Shown here: positions 2 to 12,342 of the stretch, one piece after another
Position numbering within the stretch: position 1 is the first letter of the stretch
Layout: every line of letters begins with the position of its first letter
Assembly: GCA_034408725.1 (NCBI GenBank)
Contig: JAWXCN010000154.1
Location: 1-12,384, forward strand
Direction of reading: 5' to 3'
Length of the DNA: 12,384 nt
DNA from: Candidatus Hydrogenedentota bacterium
GTDB taxonomy: Bacteria; Hydrogenedentota; Hydrogenedentia; Hydrogenedentales; SLHB01
Notes under the pieces: generated by a model
Told to the model about the DNA's origin: nothing
Database searches by the model: none
Seen by the model: the letters and a program-made list of their open reading frames with translations, nothing else
Made by a program: the position numbers and the translations under genes

Positions 2-1375
2 ATGTGCGCGTTCGGAAGCACGCGCCACCCGAAGTCCGCGGTTGAAGACGACGCAAACCTCAAAGCGCTGCTCGCCGCCGGCACCGAGATCGTCACCATC
101 TTCGCGAAGTCCTCGCGCGTGCAGGCGAAAGAAATCTTGCGCGTATCTCTCGATGAAAATGTCAAACTCACAGGCGAATCCGTAGCGTATCTCAAAGCGC
201 AAGGCAAACGCGTGTTCCTCGATGGCGAACATTTTTTCGACGGATTCTTTGATGATTCGGAATACGCGCTATCCGTGCTCGAAGAATCCTGGCGCAACGG
301 AGCGGAAGTATTGATCCTTTGCGACACCAACGGCGGACGCCTCCCTTCCGAAATCGCGCATGCCACTCGCGCGGTGATTGAGCGCCTGCCCAAAGCGCCG
401 ATCGGCATCCACGCGCACAACGACGCGGGCTGCGGTGTGGCGAACAGTATCGCCGCGGTCGAAGCGGGCGCGGTACACATCCAGGGCACGATCAACGGCT
501 ACGGCGAACGCACCGGCAACGCCAACCTCACGACGATTATCCCGACGGTGCAACTCAAGATGGGCGCGAAACTCGTCAGCGACAAACAACTCGCGAAACT
601 CACGCACGTCTCGCATCTCGTCGCCGAACTCGCGAACATGAACCCGCGCGATTCCGATCCCTACGTAGGCCGCGACGCATTTACGCACAAAGGCGGCATG
701 CACGCCGACGCAGTCAACAAACTCAAATCCAGTTACGAACACATCGAACCCGAAACTGTCGGCAACCGCACGCACATCGCCGTGAGCGAAGTGTCGGGCC
801 GCTCGAGTTTGTTGCAAAAAGCCGCGGACTTCGGCATCACCCTCGAGCGCGATGCAGCCGAAACGCGCGACGTGCTCAAGCGCGTAAAAGATATGGAAAG
901 CGAAGGCTACGAATTCGAAGGCGCCGACGCCTCACTCGAACTGCTAATGCTCCGCGCAAAAGGCCACGACAAAAAATTCTTCACGCTCCTCGGCTACCGC
1001 GTCAGCGTAGAAACATCAGACGGCAACGGCGACTCCAAATCCGAAGCCACCGTCAAAGTCGAGCTGCCCGATGGCCAGTGCGTACACACCGCGGCAGAGG
1101 GCGCCGGGCCCGTTGACGCCATCAACAACGCACTCCGTAAGGCGCTCGAAGGCAAATACCCCGAACTCGAAAAAGTCCACCTCGAAGACTACAAAGTCCG
1201 CATCCTCGACGGCCAATCCGCCACCAGCGCCAAAACCCGCGTCTTCATCGAATCCACCGACGGCGACACCGAATGGGATACCGTAGGCGTCTCGGAAAAT
1301 ATCATCGCCGCATCGGTGCATGCATTGCTGGATAGCATTGAATACAAGCTCTACCGTACAGCGAACAAGACATAG
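2..1375 (+). CDS. cimA: Citramalate synthase (LeuA/CimA family, DRE-TIM metallolyase with C-terminal LeuA regulatory domain); 5' end lies outside the window
   Basis: Motifs AFGST, DGEHFFDGF, LCDTNGG, GIHAHND, GTINGYGERTGNANL, YVGRDAFTHKGGMH, GYEFEGADASLEL and DYKVRIL are typical of the bacterial CimA clade. The ORF is open to the window edge. Confidence 0.9.
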   Translation: MCAFGSTRHPKSAVEDDANLKALLAAGTEIVTIFAKSSRVQAKEILRVSLDENVKLTGESVAYLKAQGKRVFLDGEHFFDGFFDDSEYALSVLEESWRNGAEVLILCDTNGGRLPSEIAHATRAVIERLPKAPIGIHAHNDAGCGVANSIAAVEAGAVHIQGTINGYGERTGNANLTTIIPTVQLKMGAKLVSDKQLAKLTHVSHLVAELANMNPRDSDPYVGRDAFTHKGGMHADAVNKLKSSYEHIEPETVGNRTHIAVSEVSGRSSLLQKAADFGITLERDAAETRDVLKRVKDMESEGYEFEGADASLELLMLRAKGHDKKFFTLLGYRVSVETSDGNGDSKSEATVKVELPDGQCVHTAAEGAGPVDAINNALRKALEGKYPELEKVHLEDYKVRILDGQSATSAKTRVFIESTDGDTEWDTVGVSENIIAASVHALLDSIEYKLYRTANKT

Positions 1376-1389
1376 TATTGGCCACGAGC

Positions 1390-1420
1390 AACTTGAAGTC
1401 GCAGTTTACGACTTCAAGTT
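1390..1420. terminator. Perfect 12-bp hairpin between convergent cimA and SDR genes; probable (possibly bidirectional) terminator or REP-like palindrome
   Basis: AACTTGAAGTCG-cagttta-CGACTTCAAGTT, starting 15 nt after the cimA stop; only a short T-run follows. Confidence 0.55.
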
Positions 1421-1498
1421 TACAACCTATTGATGCGAAGGTGGATATGACGAGTCATGGCACCTACCGAGGTCTCCCCACCCCCGATCACCCAGCGC

Positions 1499-2359
1499 TT
1501 AAATGGCCTTGTCCATAAACTTCAAGATGAGCACATCGCGCCAGCGATCGGGCAGCTTGGCAAGGAGCATTTGGATTCGGGCGTCTTTACCGACGAGGTA
1601 GCGGGTTTTTGGTTTTGCGGCGGTAAGCGCATGGGCGACGGCGTCGGCGACGACTTGGGCCGGCACGGCGGATTTTGCAGTTTGGCTTGCGCCTTTTTTT
1701 ATCATGGCGACAAGCGGCGCGTACAACTCCATCATGCGTGGCGGCAACGAATCTAGCAGGGCGTTGCCGGCGGCAACGGATTTTTCCCAGATCGGCGTGT
1801 CGATCGCGCCGGGTTGGACGAGCGCGACTTCGATGCCCCAGGGTCGCAGTTCCATGCGCAATGAATCGGTAAGGGCCTCCATTGCGAATTTTGATGCACA
1901 GTATGGTCCCCCCATAGGAATGGAGAGGCGGCCGCTTGTGGATCCAATGTTGACGATCCGGCCATGTGACGCGCGCAACGGTTCCAGAAATGCTTGTGTA
2001 ACGGCAATCTGGCCAATGACATTGACCTCGAGTTGTTGCCGCAATTTGTCGAGGGGGACAAATTCAAGTGGCGCGTTTATGCTGATGCCCGCGTTGTTCA
2101 CGAGTCCCGCGAGACCGGATTCGCCGGTGGTGGCTTTCACGGTGTCACGCGCGCTGATAATGGACGCTGCATCACACACATCGAGATATATCGCGGTGAA
2201 ACGGTCCGATGCCTGCGATTTTAGAGCATCGCCGTCGCTGTCTTTCCGCACGCCGGCGAACACCCGGAATCCGATACGGTCGAGGTGCAATGCGCATGCA
2301 GCACCGATTCCGGTCGATGCACCGGTGATAACAACTGCGCCTCGGGAGTGGGTAGTCAT
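1499..2359 (-). CDS. Classical short-chain dehydrogenase/reductase (17beta-HSD/RDH-like)
   Basis: TGASTGIG cofactor motif, LVNNAG, catalytic S and YCASK (YxxxK), 286 aa. Confidence 0.93.
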   Translation of the reverse strand: MTTHSRGAVVITGASTGIGAACALHLDRIGFRVFAGVRKDSDGDALKSQASDRFTAIYLDVCDAASIISARDTVKATTGESGLAGLVNNAGISINAPLEFVPLDKLRQQLEVNVIGQIAVTQAFLEPLRASHGRIVNIGSTSGRLSIPMGGPYCASKFAMEALTDSLRMELRPWGIEVALVQPGAIDTPIWEKSVAAGNALLDSLPPRMMELYAPLVAMIKKGASQTAKSAVPAQVVADAVAHALTAAKPKTRYLVGKDARIQMLLAKLPDRWRDVLILKFMDKAI

Positions 2360-2418
2360 TATTTCAAATCCTTTCGTGATTTGCAGCGCGAAGCGCCTTG
2401 GAGATACTGTTGTTTTTT

Positions 2419-2751
2419 TTAAGAGGGATTTAATCTCTTTTTGTAATTGGGGTCATAAGGTATTCCTGATACCAGAACGCCGCGCAGTTCCAAGCCGGCG
2501 ATGGCCCGCACGAACCAATGGGAATAAGCTCCGGTTGATTCAATGCACACGCCCAGGCACTCCCCCGCCTTAAGCGCCGGGGCAAGCCAATGGGCCAATT
2601 CAGGGATGCCTTTGGCATCGTTGGCCAAATGCCGTACCTCCAGCTTTGCCCATTCTGAAGTTTGAAAATGCAGGCCCGCCACGCACACATCAACCGTCGC
2701 CTTGGCAATGTCCACACCAATCCAAAAGCCGTCCTGCAATCGCTCCATCAT
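2419..2751 (-). pseudogene. IS110 transposase/recombinase remnant: N-terminal part of the RuvC-like DEDD domain fused in frame to the extreme C-terminus
   Basis: WIGVDIAKATVDV (first catalytic D) and VCIESTGAYS (catalytic E) are IS110 N-terminal motifs; RGVLVSGIPYDPNY resembles the IS110 C-terminal tail. The later catalytic D..D pair and the Ser-containing Tnp domain are absent. Start taken at ATG 2751 (GGAG 9 nt upstream); the ORF caller gives 2766. Confidence 0.85.
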
Positions 2752-2779
2752 CGTGTTACACTCCATTTCATTACACGAT

Positions 2780-2946
2780 ACGTCCGAAAGGGCGGCCTAC
2801 TTGTTGGGATACGAGCTTGGTATCGTCACCAGCTCCCGATACTGTTCACCGTCCTTCGGACACAAATGCAAATAGGCCTGATGCGGGAATCTCCAAATCG
2901 AGCTGTTCTACTAAACGCTCCAGTGCGGCATCCCTGCATCAGGCCC
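2780..2946 (-). ncRNA. IS110 bridge RNA (target-binding loop followed by donor-binding loop)
   Basis: Two long hairpins with internal loops. Target loop: closed by GGCCTGATGC/GCATCAGGCC (2875-2884/2936-2945), LTG TGCCGCACT (2930-2922), RTG TTTGGAG (2897-2891). Donor loop: closed by GTCCGAA/TTCGGAC (2782-2788/2855-2861), LDG ACAGTATC (2845-2838), RDG ACAAG (2804-2800). The guides match the flanking target and the element's own end junction. Confidence 0.88.
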
Positions 2947-2950
2947 TGTT

Positions 2951-2956
2951 ACTATA
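2951..2956 (-). promoter_or_regulatory. -10 box (TATAGT) of the predicted circle-junction promoter driving bridge RNA/transposase
   Basis: On circularisation TTAAAA from the right end (2422-2417) lies exactly 17 bp from TATAGT in the left end: TTAAAA-aaaacaacagtatcttg-TATAGT. Confidence 0.6.
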
Positions 2957-3092
2957 CAATTGCGGTAGCGGTAGCTACCGCTTTCAGTTTAAGACTCCAG
3001 CAGCGCCCCGCATCAGTCCAGACCACGCGCAATCCGAAGCGAAAGGGGTAGCTGCGTCCGAAGTGGACTGCGCTACCGCAGTCCAAGGCGCT

Positions 3093-3119
3093 GGAGTGCA
3101 GCGCGTAGCTGTCGCTTTT
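3093..3119 (+). repeat. Degenerate REP copy
   Basis: GGAGTGCAGCGCGTAGCTGTCGCTTT keeps the GGAGT foot, an imperfect stem and the CGCTTT tail. Confidence 0.5.
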
Positions 3120-3265
3120 CCTTCACACAATTACGGTTACATCATAATCAAGTGGGATTGCCCCAATGGACAAGGCAAGTGCCTGGTATATGCGCACCCT
3201 TGCGGGTATCATAAATACGCGCCAATACAGGCTGCGGCTGCATACGCGGAGGGTGGTGTTCAAGC

Positions 3266-4141
3266 ATGGCTATCGACCGCGAAGAGATCGACAAGCTCCA
3301 TGAAGAAGCTAAACGGGTCCGGAAAAACTTCCGGTACATCATTCAGGACCTGAAGCGCTCTCCCGAAAATATCGATCTGCTGCGTCAACGCGAGCACCTC
3401 AAAAAGCGTTACGACCAGATTCAAACCATGCTCACCGACGCGCGCGAAGCAAGGGACGCCCTCCTGGATGATGAACCGGAAGGGCAAGAAGTCCCGCAGA
3501 TCGATATGTCCATCTTCGAGCCAAAACCCTACGAGGTTCCCGTGGCGGTCGTGGTGCAGCAGAGGACAGCCTCGGCTCGCACTGGAGGGTCACCACTCAC
3601 ATTCAAGAACGTACGTATCGCTATTACGGCCGCGCTCCTGCTGGTATTGGTTCCGTTTTTCTACCTCTATTTCATGCGCAACATGCGCTTCTACGAAGTG
3701 CCGACACGGTCTATGGAACCTACGCTCCAGGCCGGCGACCGCATCATCGCCGTTGAACCGTCCCAGTACGCGCGCGGCGATATTGTCGTGCTGAACGACC
3801 CGCAAGCCCCCGGCGACTACCTCGTCAAACGCCTCGTCGCCTTCGCGGGCGATTCCATTGAAGTGGTCAACGGCGCACTACTGATAAATAACCAGCCCAT
3901 TGACGAACCCTATATTCGTGAACGTATGGAGTACATCTTCGGACCCGTTACGGTCTCCAATGAAGAAGTTTATCTGCTGGGCGACAACCGCAATGAAAGT
4001 GACGACAGCCATATCTGGCAATCCGGACGGCCCCTCTCCGAACTGCGCGGACGCGTCCACTTCATTTACAGCCCCTCGTCGCGCCGGAGCAGCCTCGACA
4101 ATCAGCGGGCACGGTTTCACGACGTCAAGTCGCCAGACTAG
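3266..4141 (+). CDS. lepB: Signal peptidase I (S26A) with long N-terminal cytoplasmic extension
   Basis: TM helix (IAITAALLLVLVPFFYLYF), catalytic Ser box PTRSMEPTL, RGDIVV, catalytic Lys YLVKRLV, LLGDNRNESDDS. Confidence 0.92.
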   Translation: MAIDREEIDKLHEEAKRVRKNFRYIIQDLKRSPENIDLLRQREHLKKRYDQIQTMLTDAREARDALLDDEPEGQEVPQIDMSIFEPKPYEVPVAVVVQQRTASARTGGSPLTFKNVRIAITAALLLVLVPFFYLYFMRNMRFYEVPTRSMEPTLQAGDRIIAVEPSQYARGDIVVLNDPQAPGDYLVKRLVAFAGDSIEVVNGALLINNQPIDEPYIRERMEYIFGPVTVSNEEVYLLGDNRNESDDSHIWQSGRPLSELRGRVHFIYSPSSRRSSLDNQRARFHDVKSPD

Positions 4142-4411
4142 GCAATCAAAAAGGCCCGTTCCGCTTCCGCAATCCAGTCCTCCTCCCCAAAAACATAATC
4201 ATTCCTGACTATTTGGTGTTTACGGCCCAACTTCTTTTGTTGTTCTGCGCCCAGTTTTGCCAGCTAGATTCTTATCGACAAACAAGTTACATAGTTTTTA
4301 GACTTGGCCCGCATTTTGCTCACTTAATGAAACTCTGGCTGCATGAACGGACTGTGCAGATAAGCGACGATGGCCGTGCTGGGAGCGCGGCCCAAGAAGG
4401 GCTCCGCATTG

Positions 4412-4654
4412 ATGAAGATGATCGAATCGAACGAATTCCGTCAACAAACGATTTTGTTATTGCAGGAGATGAGTACGGCGCTGCGATATCTCTCCACGGA
4501 AATTGACAGCGCCGTTGTCAGCGAGCGCAAGGTTGACCACGATCTCCTGCGCCGCATTTCGCAAGCCTTGCAGAAGCAGCAGGGCCATTTGCTCAAAATC
4601 GCCGAATCGTCCGACCCCTATCGCATGCGCCGCGAAGTAGCCGAATCACGATAA
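4412..4654 (+). CDS. Small helical hypothetical protein (~80 aa)
   Basis: Plausible composition with amphipathic helices; start uncertain (4370, 4412 or 4418). Confidence 0.55.
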   Translation: MKMIESNEFRQQTILLLQEMSTALRYLSTEIDSAVVSERKVDHDLLRRISQALQKQQGHLLKIAESSDPYRMRREVAESR

Positions 4655-6368: not shown

Positions 6369-6451
6369 GCCTTGGACTGCGGTAGCGGAAATGCCTTGGA
6401 CTGCGGTAGCGGAGTCCGCTTCGGACGCAGCTACCGCTTTCACTTCGGATT
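6369..6451. repeat. Partial REPIN (GGAC-type half) preceded by a duplicated REP 5' part
   Basis: 6393-6451 is 56/59 identical to 10754-10812; GCCTTGGACTGCGGTAGCGGA occurs at 6369 and 6393 (24-bp period). Confidence 0.85.
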
Positions 6452-6550
6452 ACTCTTTTGCTGCGGACGGCACCTTCGCTTCGGATTGCAGGCTGTTTAT
6501 GGAAGAATGCGCTGTCCAAGCACAGCAAAGGGTAGGCCATCTGTGATAAA

Positions 6551-6675
6551 CAGCCAAAGCGGCGCCTTGGGGGCCGCCGCAGTCCAAATAGGCTTCTTTC
6601 CAAAACATTGGTTTTCGGAGAAGGATTATTTGGACTGCGGTGGCGAAGCGGGTAGCGCAGACACCGCTTTGGCTG
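6551..6675. repeat. Inverted pair of variant REPs
   Basis: CAGCCAAAGCGG...CCGCAGTCCAAATA (6551-6590) and TATTTGGACTGCGG...CCGCTTTGGCTG (6627-6675) are inverted counterparts with different loops. Confidence 0.8.
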
Positions 6676-10750: not shown

Positions 10751-10890
10751 AGCGCCTTGGACTGCGGTAACGGAGTCCGTTTCGGACGCAGCTACCGCTT
10801 TCGCTTCGGATTGGAAGCGGTCTGGACTGATGTGAGGTGCTGCTGGTCTCTTGAAGTGAAAACGGTAGCTACCGCTACCGCACTCCAAAG
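10751..10890. repeat. Intact REPIN (GGAC-type REP, spacer, inverted GGAG-type REP) just downstream of the RAYT
   Basis: CCTTGGACTGCGGTAAC...GCTACCGCTTT ... AAACGGTAGCTACCGCTACCGCACTCCAAAG; homologous over its full length to the IS-interrupted copy. Confidence 0.9.
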
Positions 10891-10928: not shown

Positions 10929-11496
10929 TCACCAATCCCCCGAAACCTCGTAATCATCTTTTACATTCACCGTATCCGCCTTGAACCGGTAGATACTCCT
11001 AACCTGCGCCGGCGCCGCTACACGTTCAAACCACGCCGCTGAACCAATCATACTGATTCGCGACCGCAACGAGCCCATGCTTCACGGCGTTCTGGTGAAC
11101 GTAGTTCAATCGCGCCAGATACGATTTCTCATACGTCAACTGGGTTTCGCGAAAGTTGTACCAAACTCTTCTGCCTTTCGCGTCGTCGAGCCGGTTGACC
11201 CATAATGCCAGCTTCGAGTGAAGCTCCATCGATATATTCGACAAACTCGCCGCAGTTTCCTCTTCAATAGGAGAATGCGCCACGAAATGATAGTGGTTGG
11301 AAAATACCGCCCAAGCTTCGACGCGCCACCCATATTTTTGTGTGACTTTAATAAGACCGCGTTGGAGAATGGCCAACCGCTCTGCGCCTCGAAAGTGTTG
11401 CTCCTGGTTATAAGTGCTCGCCGTAACAAAAAAAGTCCCTGACTCGGAGAGCTGATGCACTGGCGCGTGTGGCCATGGAAAAGAAGTTTCGCTCAT
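10929..11496 (-). pseudogene. REP-associated tyrosine transposase (RAYT, HUH Y1 / IS200-IS605 superfamily) with a frameshift near 11043
   Basis: FFVTAST, AWAVFSNHYHFV (HUH), VWYNFRET, YVHQNAVKHGLV..Y.W (catalytic Tyr region). The called ORF stops at 11026, but another frame continues SAAWFERVAAPAQVRSIYRFKADTVNVKDDYEVSGDW* to 10929. REPs flank both sides. Confidence 0.85.
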
Positions 11497-11548
11497 GTGC
11501 GCAATGCTGTCACACCTCTGTTCTCGCCGCAACATGCCTTCGCATACT

Positions 11549-11880
11549 CCCAAAGCGGTAGCTACCGCTACCGCACTCCAAGGCGTCGAACTGCGGCGAA
11601 TCAACCTTGGACTGCGGCGTGTAAGCGCCGCTTTCACTTCATCCATACCGATCGCCGCGGATCATGTGGAAACCAAAGCCTATCGCCACCCCAAAGCGGT
11701 AGCTACCGCACTCCAAGGCACCGAACTGCGGCGAATCAACCTTGGACTGCGGCGTGTAAGCGCCGCTTTCACTTCATCCATACCGATCGCCGCGGATCAC
11801 TTTGCAAACCGCGGATCACGTGGAAACCACAAGCCTATCGCCACCCCAAAGCGGTAGCTACCGCTACCGCACTCCAAGGC
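11549..11880. repeat. BIME-like array of alternating inverted REPs (A-B-A-B-A) upstream of the RAYT
   Basis: A = AAAGCGGTAGCTACCGCTACCGCACTCCAAGGC at ~11552, ~11693 (6 bp shorter) and ~11848; B = CCTTGGACTGCGGCGTGTAAGCGCCGCTTT at 11605 and 11740. The linkers are also repeated. Confidence 0.93.
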
Positions 11881-12342
11881 TCACGTCAAATGTTTCGTCA
11901 TAATCAGCGCGTCCTCGTCCGTGGTCGGATAGTATCGGCGCCGGCGTCCCGTGACCAGGAACCCCATGCTTTCATACAAACTACGCGCGCGCACGTTCGA
12001 CTCGCGCACCTCGAGTGTCGCCGCCAACACGCCATTCGTTTTCGCCGTCTCAAGAATGTGCTGCAACAGCCGCCGTCCGTGGCCAAGGCCGCGGTGTATG
12101 TCGCGAATGGTGACGCTCGTGATGTGCGCTTCATCCAGTAACGGCCAATATCCGCCGTAGCCGATCAATTCGCCCCCGATTAGCACCACGACAAACTGTG
12201 ATCGCGGATGCGTGATCTCCTCACGAAACATTCCCTCGGTCCACGGTTCCGGATACGCCTCCTGCTCGATCAACAGAATTCCCGGCAAATGCTCCTCCGC
12301 GATGCGTTCAAAGCGAAGCTCCGTTTTCTCCGATACACTCAT
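11881..12342 (-). CDS. rimI: Ribosomal protein S18-alanine N-acetyltransferase (GNAT)
   Basis: IEQEAYPEPW, EAHITSVTI, RGLGHGRRLL (acetyl-CoA motif A), LEVRESN..A..LYE..GF...GRRRRYY...EDALIM. Confidence 0.93.
   Translation of the reverse strand: MSVSEKTELRFERIAEEHLPGILLIEQEAYPEPWTEGMFREEITHPRSQFVVVLIGGELIGYGGYWPLLDEAHITSVTIRDIHRGLGHGRRLLQHILETAKTNGVLAATLEVRESNVRARSLYESMGFLVTGRRRRYYPTTDEDALIMTKHLT

Follow-up and report, generated by a model that had tools for sequence, protein, structure and literature searches.

We read the minus strand at 2402-2960 of contig C154, from the genome of a Hydrogenedentota bacterium, as an internally deleted IS110 element that lies in a host REP unit, possesses a genuine bridge-RNA gene and is most likely an immobile relic, and we give this reading a probability of about 90%. 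The contig is analysed here in its entirety as the window (12,384 nucleotides, or 12.4 kb), and belongs to a 5.17-Mb assembly of 280 contigs that is 92% complete. The 557-bp unit has an SDR gene (1499-2359) on one side and a signal-peptidase gene (3266-4141) on the other, and consists of a 192-nt non-coding left end followed by an ORF of 115 residues. Its left boundary reads ...GCGGTAGCTACCGCTACCGCA/AT/TGTATAGTAACAGGG... and its right boundary ...AACAACAGTAT/CT/CCAAGGCGCTTCGCGC....

The founding example of a REP-directed IS110 bridge RNA is IS621 of E. coli, a system described in 2024 (Durrant et al., PMC11208160; Hiraizumi et al., PMC11208158). In the rules described for that element, the left guides pair with the bottom strand and the right guides with the top strand, and the core takes part in all four pairings (PMC11208160). 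The same source reports a natural concordance of guides and targets, with 0-2 mismatches, across thousands of elements, and IS110-family elements have long been known to insert into REP sequences (Choi 2003 and Tobes & Pareja 2006, both cited in PMC11208160). Here, we describe the RNA, the target, the relatives and the present state of the window element.

A two-hairpin RNA with target and donor guides

The original prediction proposed that the non-coding left end of the unit folds on the minus strand into two hairpins with internal loops, and the fold bears this out. The 191-nt left end has a predicted dG of -75.6 kcal/mol (z -4.86), a value matched by 0 of 200 dinucleotide shuffles, and the two hairpins occupy 2782-2946, just upstream of the remnant ORF, with which they share the strand (Table 1). 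All four strings that had been quoted as guides occur where they had been placed, on opposite sides of the internal loop in each hairpin. Folds of one or two sequences place a few weak pairs across loop 1; these are gone in a family consensus of 16 sequences, which comprises two hairpins with compensatory changes in 21 of its 32 stem pairs and with the guide columns unpaired. In this conserved fold the guides lie in single-stranded internal loops, as the prediction demanded.

Table 1. Positions of the element, its RNA and its flanks in the window
Feature	Position	Strand	Basis
Left flank, host REP stem-loop GCGGTAGC-TACC-GCTACCGC	2961..2981	-	unit recurs in the genome
Left target half TACCGCA, end of REP 3' arm	2961-2967	-	
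Left core dinucleotide AT (CT in the family)	2959..2960	-	comparison with related loci
Left end TGTATAGT	2951..2958	-	TGTAT conserved in 20/20 mapped elements
Element start TGTATAG	2952-2958	-	
Putative -10-like hexamer TATAGT in the left end	2951-2956	-	prediction
Hairpin 1, target-binding loop	2874..2946	-	fold, guide-flank covariation
Left target guide UGCCGCACU (UGCCGCA+CU)	2922-2930	-	hairpin 1 loop
Right target guide UUUGGAG (UUUGG+AG)	2891-2897	-	hairpin 1 loop
Hairpin 2, donor-binding loop	2782..2861	-	fold, covariation of left donor guide
Left donor guide ACAGUAUC	2838-2845	-	hairpin 2 loop
Right donor guide ACAAG	2800-2804	-	hairpin 2 loop
Remnant ORF, 115 aa	2419..2766	-	Pfam and BLASTP
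Right end ACAGTAT	2404-2410	-	
Right core CT	2402-2403	-	
Right flank CCAAGGCGCTTC, right half of the interrupted REP unit	2390..2401	-	
Predicted cognate targets for window RNA / G040-type recombinase: TGCCGCACTCCAAG, TACCGCACTCCAAG			

The donor guides in loop 2 match the joined ends of the element, as had been claimed: ACAGUAUC is identical to the element's own right end, ACAGTAT+C, and ACAAG is complementary to CT+TGT, its own left end. Loop 1 had been said to correspond to exactly the sequence that flanks the element. Its guides do fit the site, TACCGCA/CT/CCAAG, but the word "exactly" does not hold, given the AT left core, one G-for-A difference and one U-G wobble. The left target guide reproduces the top strand of TACCGCA+C(T) and agrees with the reconstructed empty site TACCGCA+CT in eight of nine letters; the exception is the second letter, G in the guide (UGCCGCA) and A in the flank (TACCGCA), a difference that a G-T wobble with the bottom strand accommodates. 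The right target guide is complementary to CT+CCAA(G) and matches the insertion site in six of seven letters, the last base being a U opposite G.

Rfam 15 families gave no match at 2782-2946 at E values up to 10, in a collection that may or may not include a bridge-RNA model. At the same threshold the whole window returned just two weak matches to miRNA models (6574-6643 and 4456-4529), of which the first sits on a REP inverted pair; neither touches the bridge RNA.

The host REP family at the insertion site

The target guides had been predicted to be aimed at the REP family of the genome, and this is supported: the element interrupts a palindromic host repeat that is intergenic and present in many copies, and the virtual empty site is copied elsewhere. 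The motif CCGCANTCCAW occurs 465 times in the genome, and the 13-mer REP core CCGCACTCCAAGG is present in 138 copies, versus 0 for a backwards control. The REP unit is composed of an 8-bp stem (GCGGYAGC, a loop of 4-5 nt, GCYRCCGC) followed by ACTCCAAGGCGC, and the element is inserted at the 3' foot of this stem. The family thus combines many copies per genome with an imperfect palindrome that forms a stem-loop and, as judged within the window, an extragenic location: all 12 intact cores in the window (at 3076, 6371-6640, 10756-10889 and 11571-11878), as well as the interrupted one, lie between genes supported by Pfam.

A within-genome virtual empty site was used in place of an orthologous one; in four congeners no orthologous empty site was readable, because the two flanking genes sit on different contigs there. 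The 35-nt unit made of the left 21 nt, CT and the right 12 nt has exactly two copies elsewhere in the genome, and a 31-nt version has five; precise removal of the element therefore restores a normal REP unit. The number of sites that the guides could address is large, with 80 genome sites fitting T[AG]CCGCACTCCAA[AG], versus about 0.04 expected for one 14-mer. The variant TGCCGCA-CT-CCAAG, which the left guide UGCCGCA fits perfectly, accounts for 37 sites, and the TACCGCA variant, the type used here, fits through the G-T wobble at 39.

Four matches to PF01797 (Y1, IS200/IS605-type) were found in the genome, one at C113:44336-44680 and three weaker, and no REP core occurs within 1.2 kb of any of them, so that no RAYT could be tied to the REP family in this way. 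The repeats are densely clustered in the window at 6371-6640, 10756-10889 and 11555-11878. Two tandem cores lie 24 nt apart at 6371-6406, and 11555-11878 is a regular array in which plus- and minus-strand cores alternate about 135-160 nt apart. Two long ORFs that overlap this array (11026-11646 and 11455-12141) have no Pfam match and are probably spurious. At window positions 3046 and 3064, most contigs of runs X1 and X4 read C where the window has G and T (summed depth >240); these readings are other REP copies piling up, not a variant of the locus.

The distribution of CCGCACTCCAAGG across the phylum is patchy. Among 135 genomes searched, it is present in 138 copies in the genome of the window and in 0-10 copies in the four congeners, in 75, 41 and 40 copies in G046, G076 and G040 (which represent two other families), and in 0-5 copies in most of the remaining genomes. 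Many of the G040 copies form inverted pairs about 125 nt apart, in the manner of REPINs.

Related elements and the covariation of guides with flanks

A DNA search of 60 relatives yielded a 75% identical match, confined to the RNA region, in G040, a Candidatus Hydrogenedens MAG. The G040 RNA lies upstream of an intact 339-aa gene (L003 1686-2705; PF01548, 1.8e-20; PF02371, 2.7e-18) whose product aligns end to end with the solved transposases of IS621 (8wt6, 4.3e-35) and ISCro4 (9t56, 8.7e-36), and the element is 1237 bp long, with the boundaries GCTCCCGCA/CT/TGTATGA... and ...CACAGTAT/CT/CCAAGG. Between the window and G040 RNAs there are six compensatory pair changes, at a mean column identity of 83%. 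A search for the recombinase protein in 135 genomes of the phylum identified 24 loci in 20 genomes and, at 1e-20, nothing in the window's own genome (G000). A covariance model built from the window and G040 RNAs also matches many of these relatives, immediately 5' of the recombinase gene, with scores such as 55.9 bits at L021 and 40.5 bits at L009.

The ends of these elements and their donor guides are linked. The left end begins with TGTAT in the window and in 19 related loci (20/20 mapped); it was located through this conserved motif, the complement of the right donor guide, at about 3 nt besides the core, being too short for the purpose. The left donor guide equals the element's right end plus C in the window and, again, in 19 related loci, a match seen as exact shared 8-mers in 17 loci and mapped separately in L014 and L023. 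The guide changes together with the right end, variants including ACAGTATC and ACACTATC, ACGCTATC in L016 and L022, ACACTGTC in L015, and CAGTCGCT in L025.

The target guides, in turn, follow the flanks. For the right guide, the 5-mer at a fixed structural position was compared with the reverse complement of the right flank in non-redundant loci, and across 15 loci it showed a mean of 0.53 mismatches to its own flank versus 3.33 to the flanks of other loci. For the left guide, the best match of seven flank bases was sought in 26 nt along the 5' side of loop 1, and the resulting 7-mers (16 loci) had a mean of 1.5 mismatches to their own flank versus 3.01 to others. In neither case did any of 20,000 permutations reach the observed fit, although these figures overstate independence and are not true probabilities, because the related loci are kin. 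The comparison omitted 9 of the 24 related loci: L008, L009, L018, L021 and L026, in which no left end was located by pattern or too little upstream DNA was available; L013 and L025, with no right guide at the structural position; and L029 and L030, as copies of L028. Weaker fits occur in L017, L019 and L020 (3-4 left-guide mismatches) and in L011 and L012 (2 right-guide mismatches). The proposal that homologous elements would be inserted at sites matching their guides is upheld by these results.

Hairpins and flank matches might be chance features of GC-rich, repeat-rich intergenic DNA, and a 9-mer shared between segments of 336 and 200 nt is by itself not rare (about 0.26 expected, by estimate). 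This explanation is effectively refuted by the compensatory pairs, the covariance-model matches upstream of recombinase genes and the covariation of guides with flanks across the family; that no shuffle folds as well and that a homologous RNA precedes a full-length recombinase gene likewise speak against it.

Several relatives differ from the window element in architecture. Most of those in Hydrogenedentota (L010-L030) have a longer left end of about 340-410 nt with an extra 5' module, located about 150-340 nt upstream of the recombinase start, in which a T-rich stretch (TTTTCTTTTTGGTTCTTTTTCTTTTGTGGA) is followed by repeated GTGGATAA / GTGGAAAA motifs. These motifs, which we take to resemble a DnaA box, have similar counterparts at the 3' end of the recombinase gene, and the module is absent from the window and G040 elements. 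About 340-415 nt upstream of the recombinase start in L016 (G112:C461), a tandem duplication covers the initial ~62 nt of the left end, and its second copy begins right after a CT within the element's own T-rich stretch; the duplication may be the product of a self-targeted or aberrant recombination event. The full-length L013 (G125:C783) keeps the donor-binding hairpin in a left end of just 207 nt and seems to be without the target-binding hairpin, loop 1. Three identical 1419-bp copies in G090 (L028, L029 and L030) are inserted at GTGAAAT/CT/GTGGTT with a perfect guide match, and since the flanks of L028 and L030 are similar over more than 100 nt, a repeated sequence seems to be the target here too.

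State of the copy and comparison with known elements

The recombinase had been recognized as less than full-length, and alignment defines what is missing. The 115-aa ORF covers positions 1-77 of the 155 in the Pfam profile PF01548 (DEDD_Tnp_IS110; E 4.2e-5, below the curated cut-off), and BLASTP against the 339-aa G040 relative aligns its residues 6-94 to 1-90 and its tail to 320-337. The N-terminal ~95 residues of the DEDD domain are joined in frame with the last ~17 residues of the recombinase; therefore, about 230 codons (680 bp) have been deleted, and the ORF is not an intact recombinase with a full DEDD domain and a C-terminal PF02371 domain. The assembly yielded no PF02371 match and no PF01548 match besides the remnant, an absence that rests on a 92%-complete, 280-contig MAG, and multi-copy IS often fail to assemble. 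Searches for a full-length parent returned G040 alone when genome contigs were queried with the G040 protein; when metagenome contigs were queried with the 115-aa remnant, the sole return was a contig whose sequence is that of window 922-4266, probably the same assembly rather than an independent one.

The core is also altered. The two boundaries of the window element do not share an identical dinucleotide, the right being CT and the left AT, whereas CT precedes the left end in 19 of 19 related loci with a mapped left end; AT is found solely in the window, and runs X1 (perhaps the source sample), X4 and X5 reproduce it in their contigs with 0 differences. A C-to-A substitution after insertion could account for the AT, as could an original insertion at one of the few CCGCAATCCA REP variants. 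We attribute it to decay or to a REP variant with an AT core having been the target, neither of which contradicts membership in the family. Because some 230 codons have been lost and the left core is AT, the copy is most likely an immobile relic, and its RNA, if made at all, most likely lacks a partner enzyme in the source genome.

By analogy with IS621, a full-length ancestor would have excised as a circle whose joined ends form a promoter, with a -35 element from the right end and a -10 element from the left end, driving expression of the RNA and the recombinase. The recombinase-RNA complex would then have aligned the circle junction with a REP site for recombination at the CT core, and this copy would later have lost its recombinase codons. 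In virtual circle junctions, the right end supplies a -35 match of 4-6 of 6 positions at a spacing of 16-18 nt in 19 of 19 rows (the window and 18 loci), versus 0-3 of 6 for the integrated left flank at the same position; the window junction reads TTAAAA, a 17-nt spacer and TATAGT. No sigma-70-like site was found in the integrated context. This agrees with the reported weak expression of the bridge RNA from integrated copies of IS621 (PMC13626964).

In a very improbable alternative, the host would have co-opted the RNA for a small-RNA function outside transposition, perhaps on transcripts that contain REPs. Such a role would explain an intact RNA beside a lost recombinase, and relative to the G040 homologue the RNA has no disabling change, its stems varying by compensation at 83% mean column identity. 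A recent relic, however, is equally expected to have an intact RNA gene; no promoter-like site was found in the integrated context; and a 561-nt query did not find the element in the four congeners, so there is no sign of conservation beyond the source genome.

A second alternative, somewhat less improbable but still unlikely, is that the unit is a non-autonomous, MITE-like guide cassette that is excised and re-inserted into REP sites by a recombinase acting in trans and encoded on unassembled DNA, on a plasmid or in a co-resident strain. In its favor, the two ends and all four guides, for donor and target alike, are intact, the deletion is precise and preserves the reading frame, the assembly is just 92% complete, and a precedent exists in MITEPpu9, which is linked to ISPpu9 and for which minicircles containing ssr9 only have been detected (PMC12288879). 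Yet the element is single-copy in the genome despite the 80 guide-compatible sites, the assembly contains no PF02371 domain anywhere, the left core is AT, and the metagenome scan gave the same relic alone and no parent. Contigs of runs X1, X4, X5 and X6 likewise contain no empty-site or other joints and no alternative forms, though rare variants can be missed in contigs. We retain the reading of the copy as most likely an immobile relic of an IS110 element.

In several respects this relic resembles IS621 (PMC11208160, PMC11208158). The RNA is located in the left end, upstream of a gene for a DEDD + Transposase_20 recombinase (here a remnant, intact in G040, whose recombinase aligns with the IS621 transposase over its full length), and forms two hairpins with internal loops; its left guides are identical to the top strand and its right guides complementary to it, with the CT core in all four pairings; and the insertion lies in a host REP. 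Even the G where the target has A has a counterpart, in that the IS621 guide encodes ATCGGGCCTAC and the commonest natural target is ATCAGGCCTAC, again a G-for-A difference (PMC11208160). The putative -35-like box in the right end likewise corresponds to the -35 box described in the right end of natural IS621 (PMC11208160). Unlike IS621, the window element has other guide sequences, another REP family and a host in another phylum, Hydrogenedentota; the copy is without about 230 recombinase codons and has an AT left core.

IS1111-group elements, whose seekRNA or bridge RNA lies in the right end, also have a DEDD recombinase guided by RNA, and repeats are often their targets. Their RNA is downstream of the recombinase gene (PMC11208160), in contrast to the upstream position of the RNA in the window and in all relatives examined. 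ISPpu9 and ISPpu10 of Pseudomonas putida are likewise IS110-family insertions in REP sequences, and they are accompanied by short derivatives, MITEPpu9 among them, that have a truncated transposase or none but keep the element ends (PMC12288879; see also preprint 10.64898/2026.03.19.712850). ISPpu9, as characterized in PMC12288879, uses an AG dinucleotide for recombination and does not build a hybrid promoter at its junction. MITEPpu9 is described there as carrying the Ssr9 sRNA rather than a bridge RNA, whereas the window derivative keeps the bridge RNA itself and is single-copy.

These comparisons temper two emphases of the original prediction. To call the guide "naturally reprogrammed" overstates the case, as it falls within the normal guide diversity of IS110 elements, for which 5,511 ncRNA-target pairs have been analysed (PMC11208160, Fig. 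2 legend), and REP targeting is not special but the classical behavior of IS621 and its relatives. A literature search for Hydrogenedentes together with IS110 found no paper; the occurrence in Hydrogenedentota is a taxonomic novelty only, and IS621 is already known to target REPs, to place its guides in two loops, to tolerate wobbles in natural targets and to form a junction promoter. Were the unit a trans-mobilized cassette after all, it would be a bridge-RNA-carrying MITE in an uncultured phylum, a miniature IS110 reduced to a bridge RNA and two ends.

As a relic, the element provides a clean natural example, from an uncultured phylum known through MAGs of microbial mats, of a bridge RNA that targets the REP family of its host. 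The small set of relatives in which guides and insertion sites covary may help in cataloguing natural bridge recombinases, for which the full-length G040 element is the usable one, and the window copy shows that a bridge-RNA gene can persist in a short relic after its recombinase is lost.
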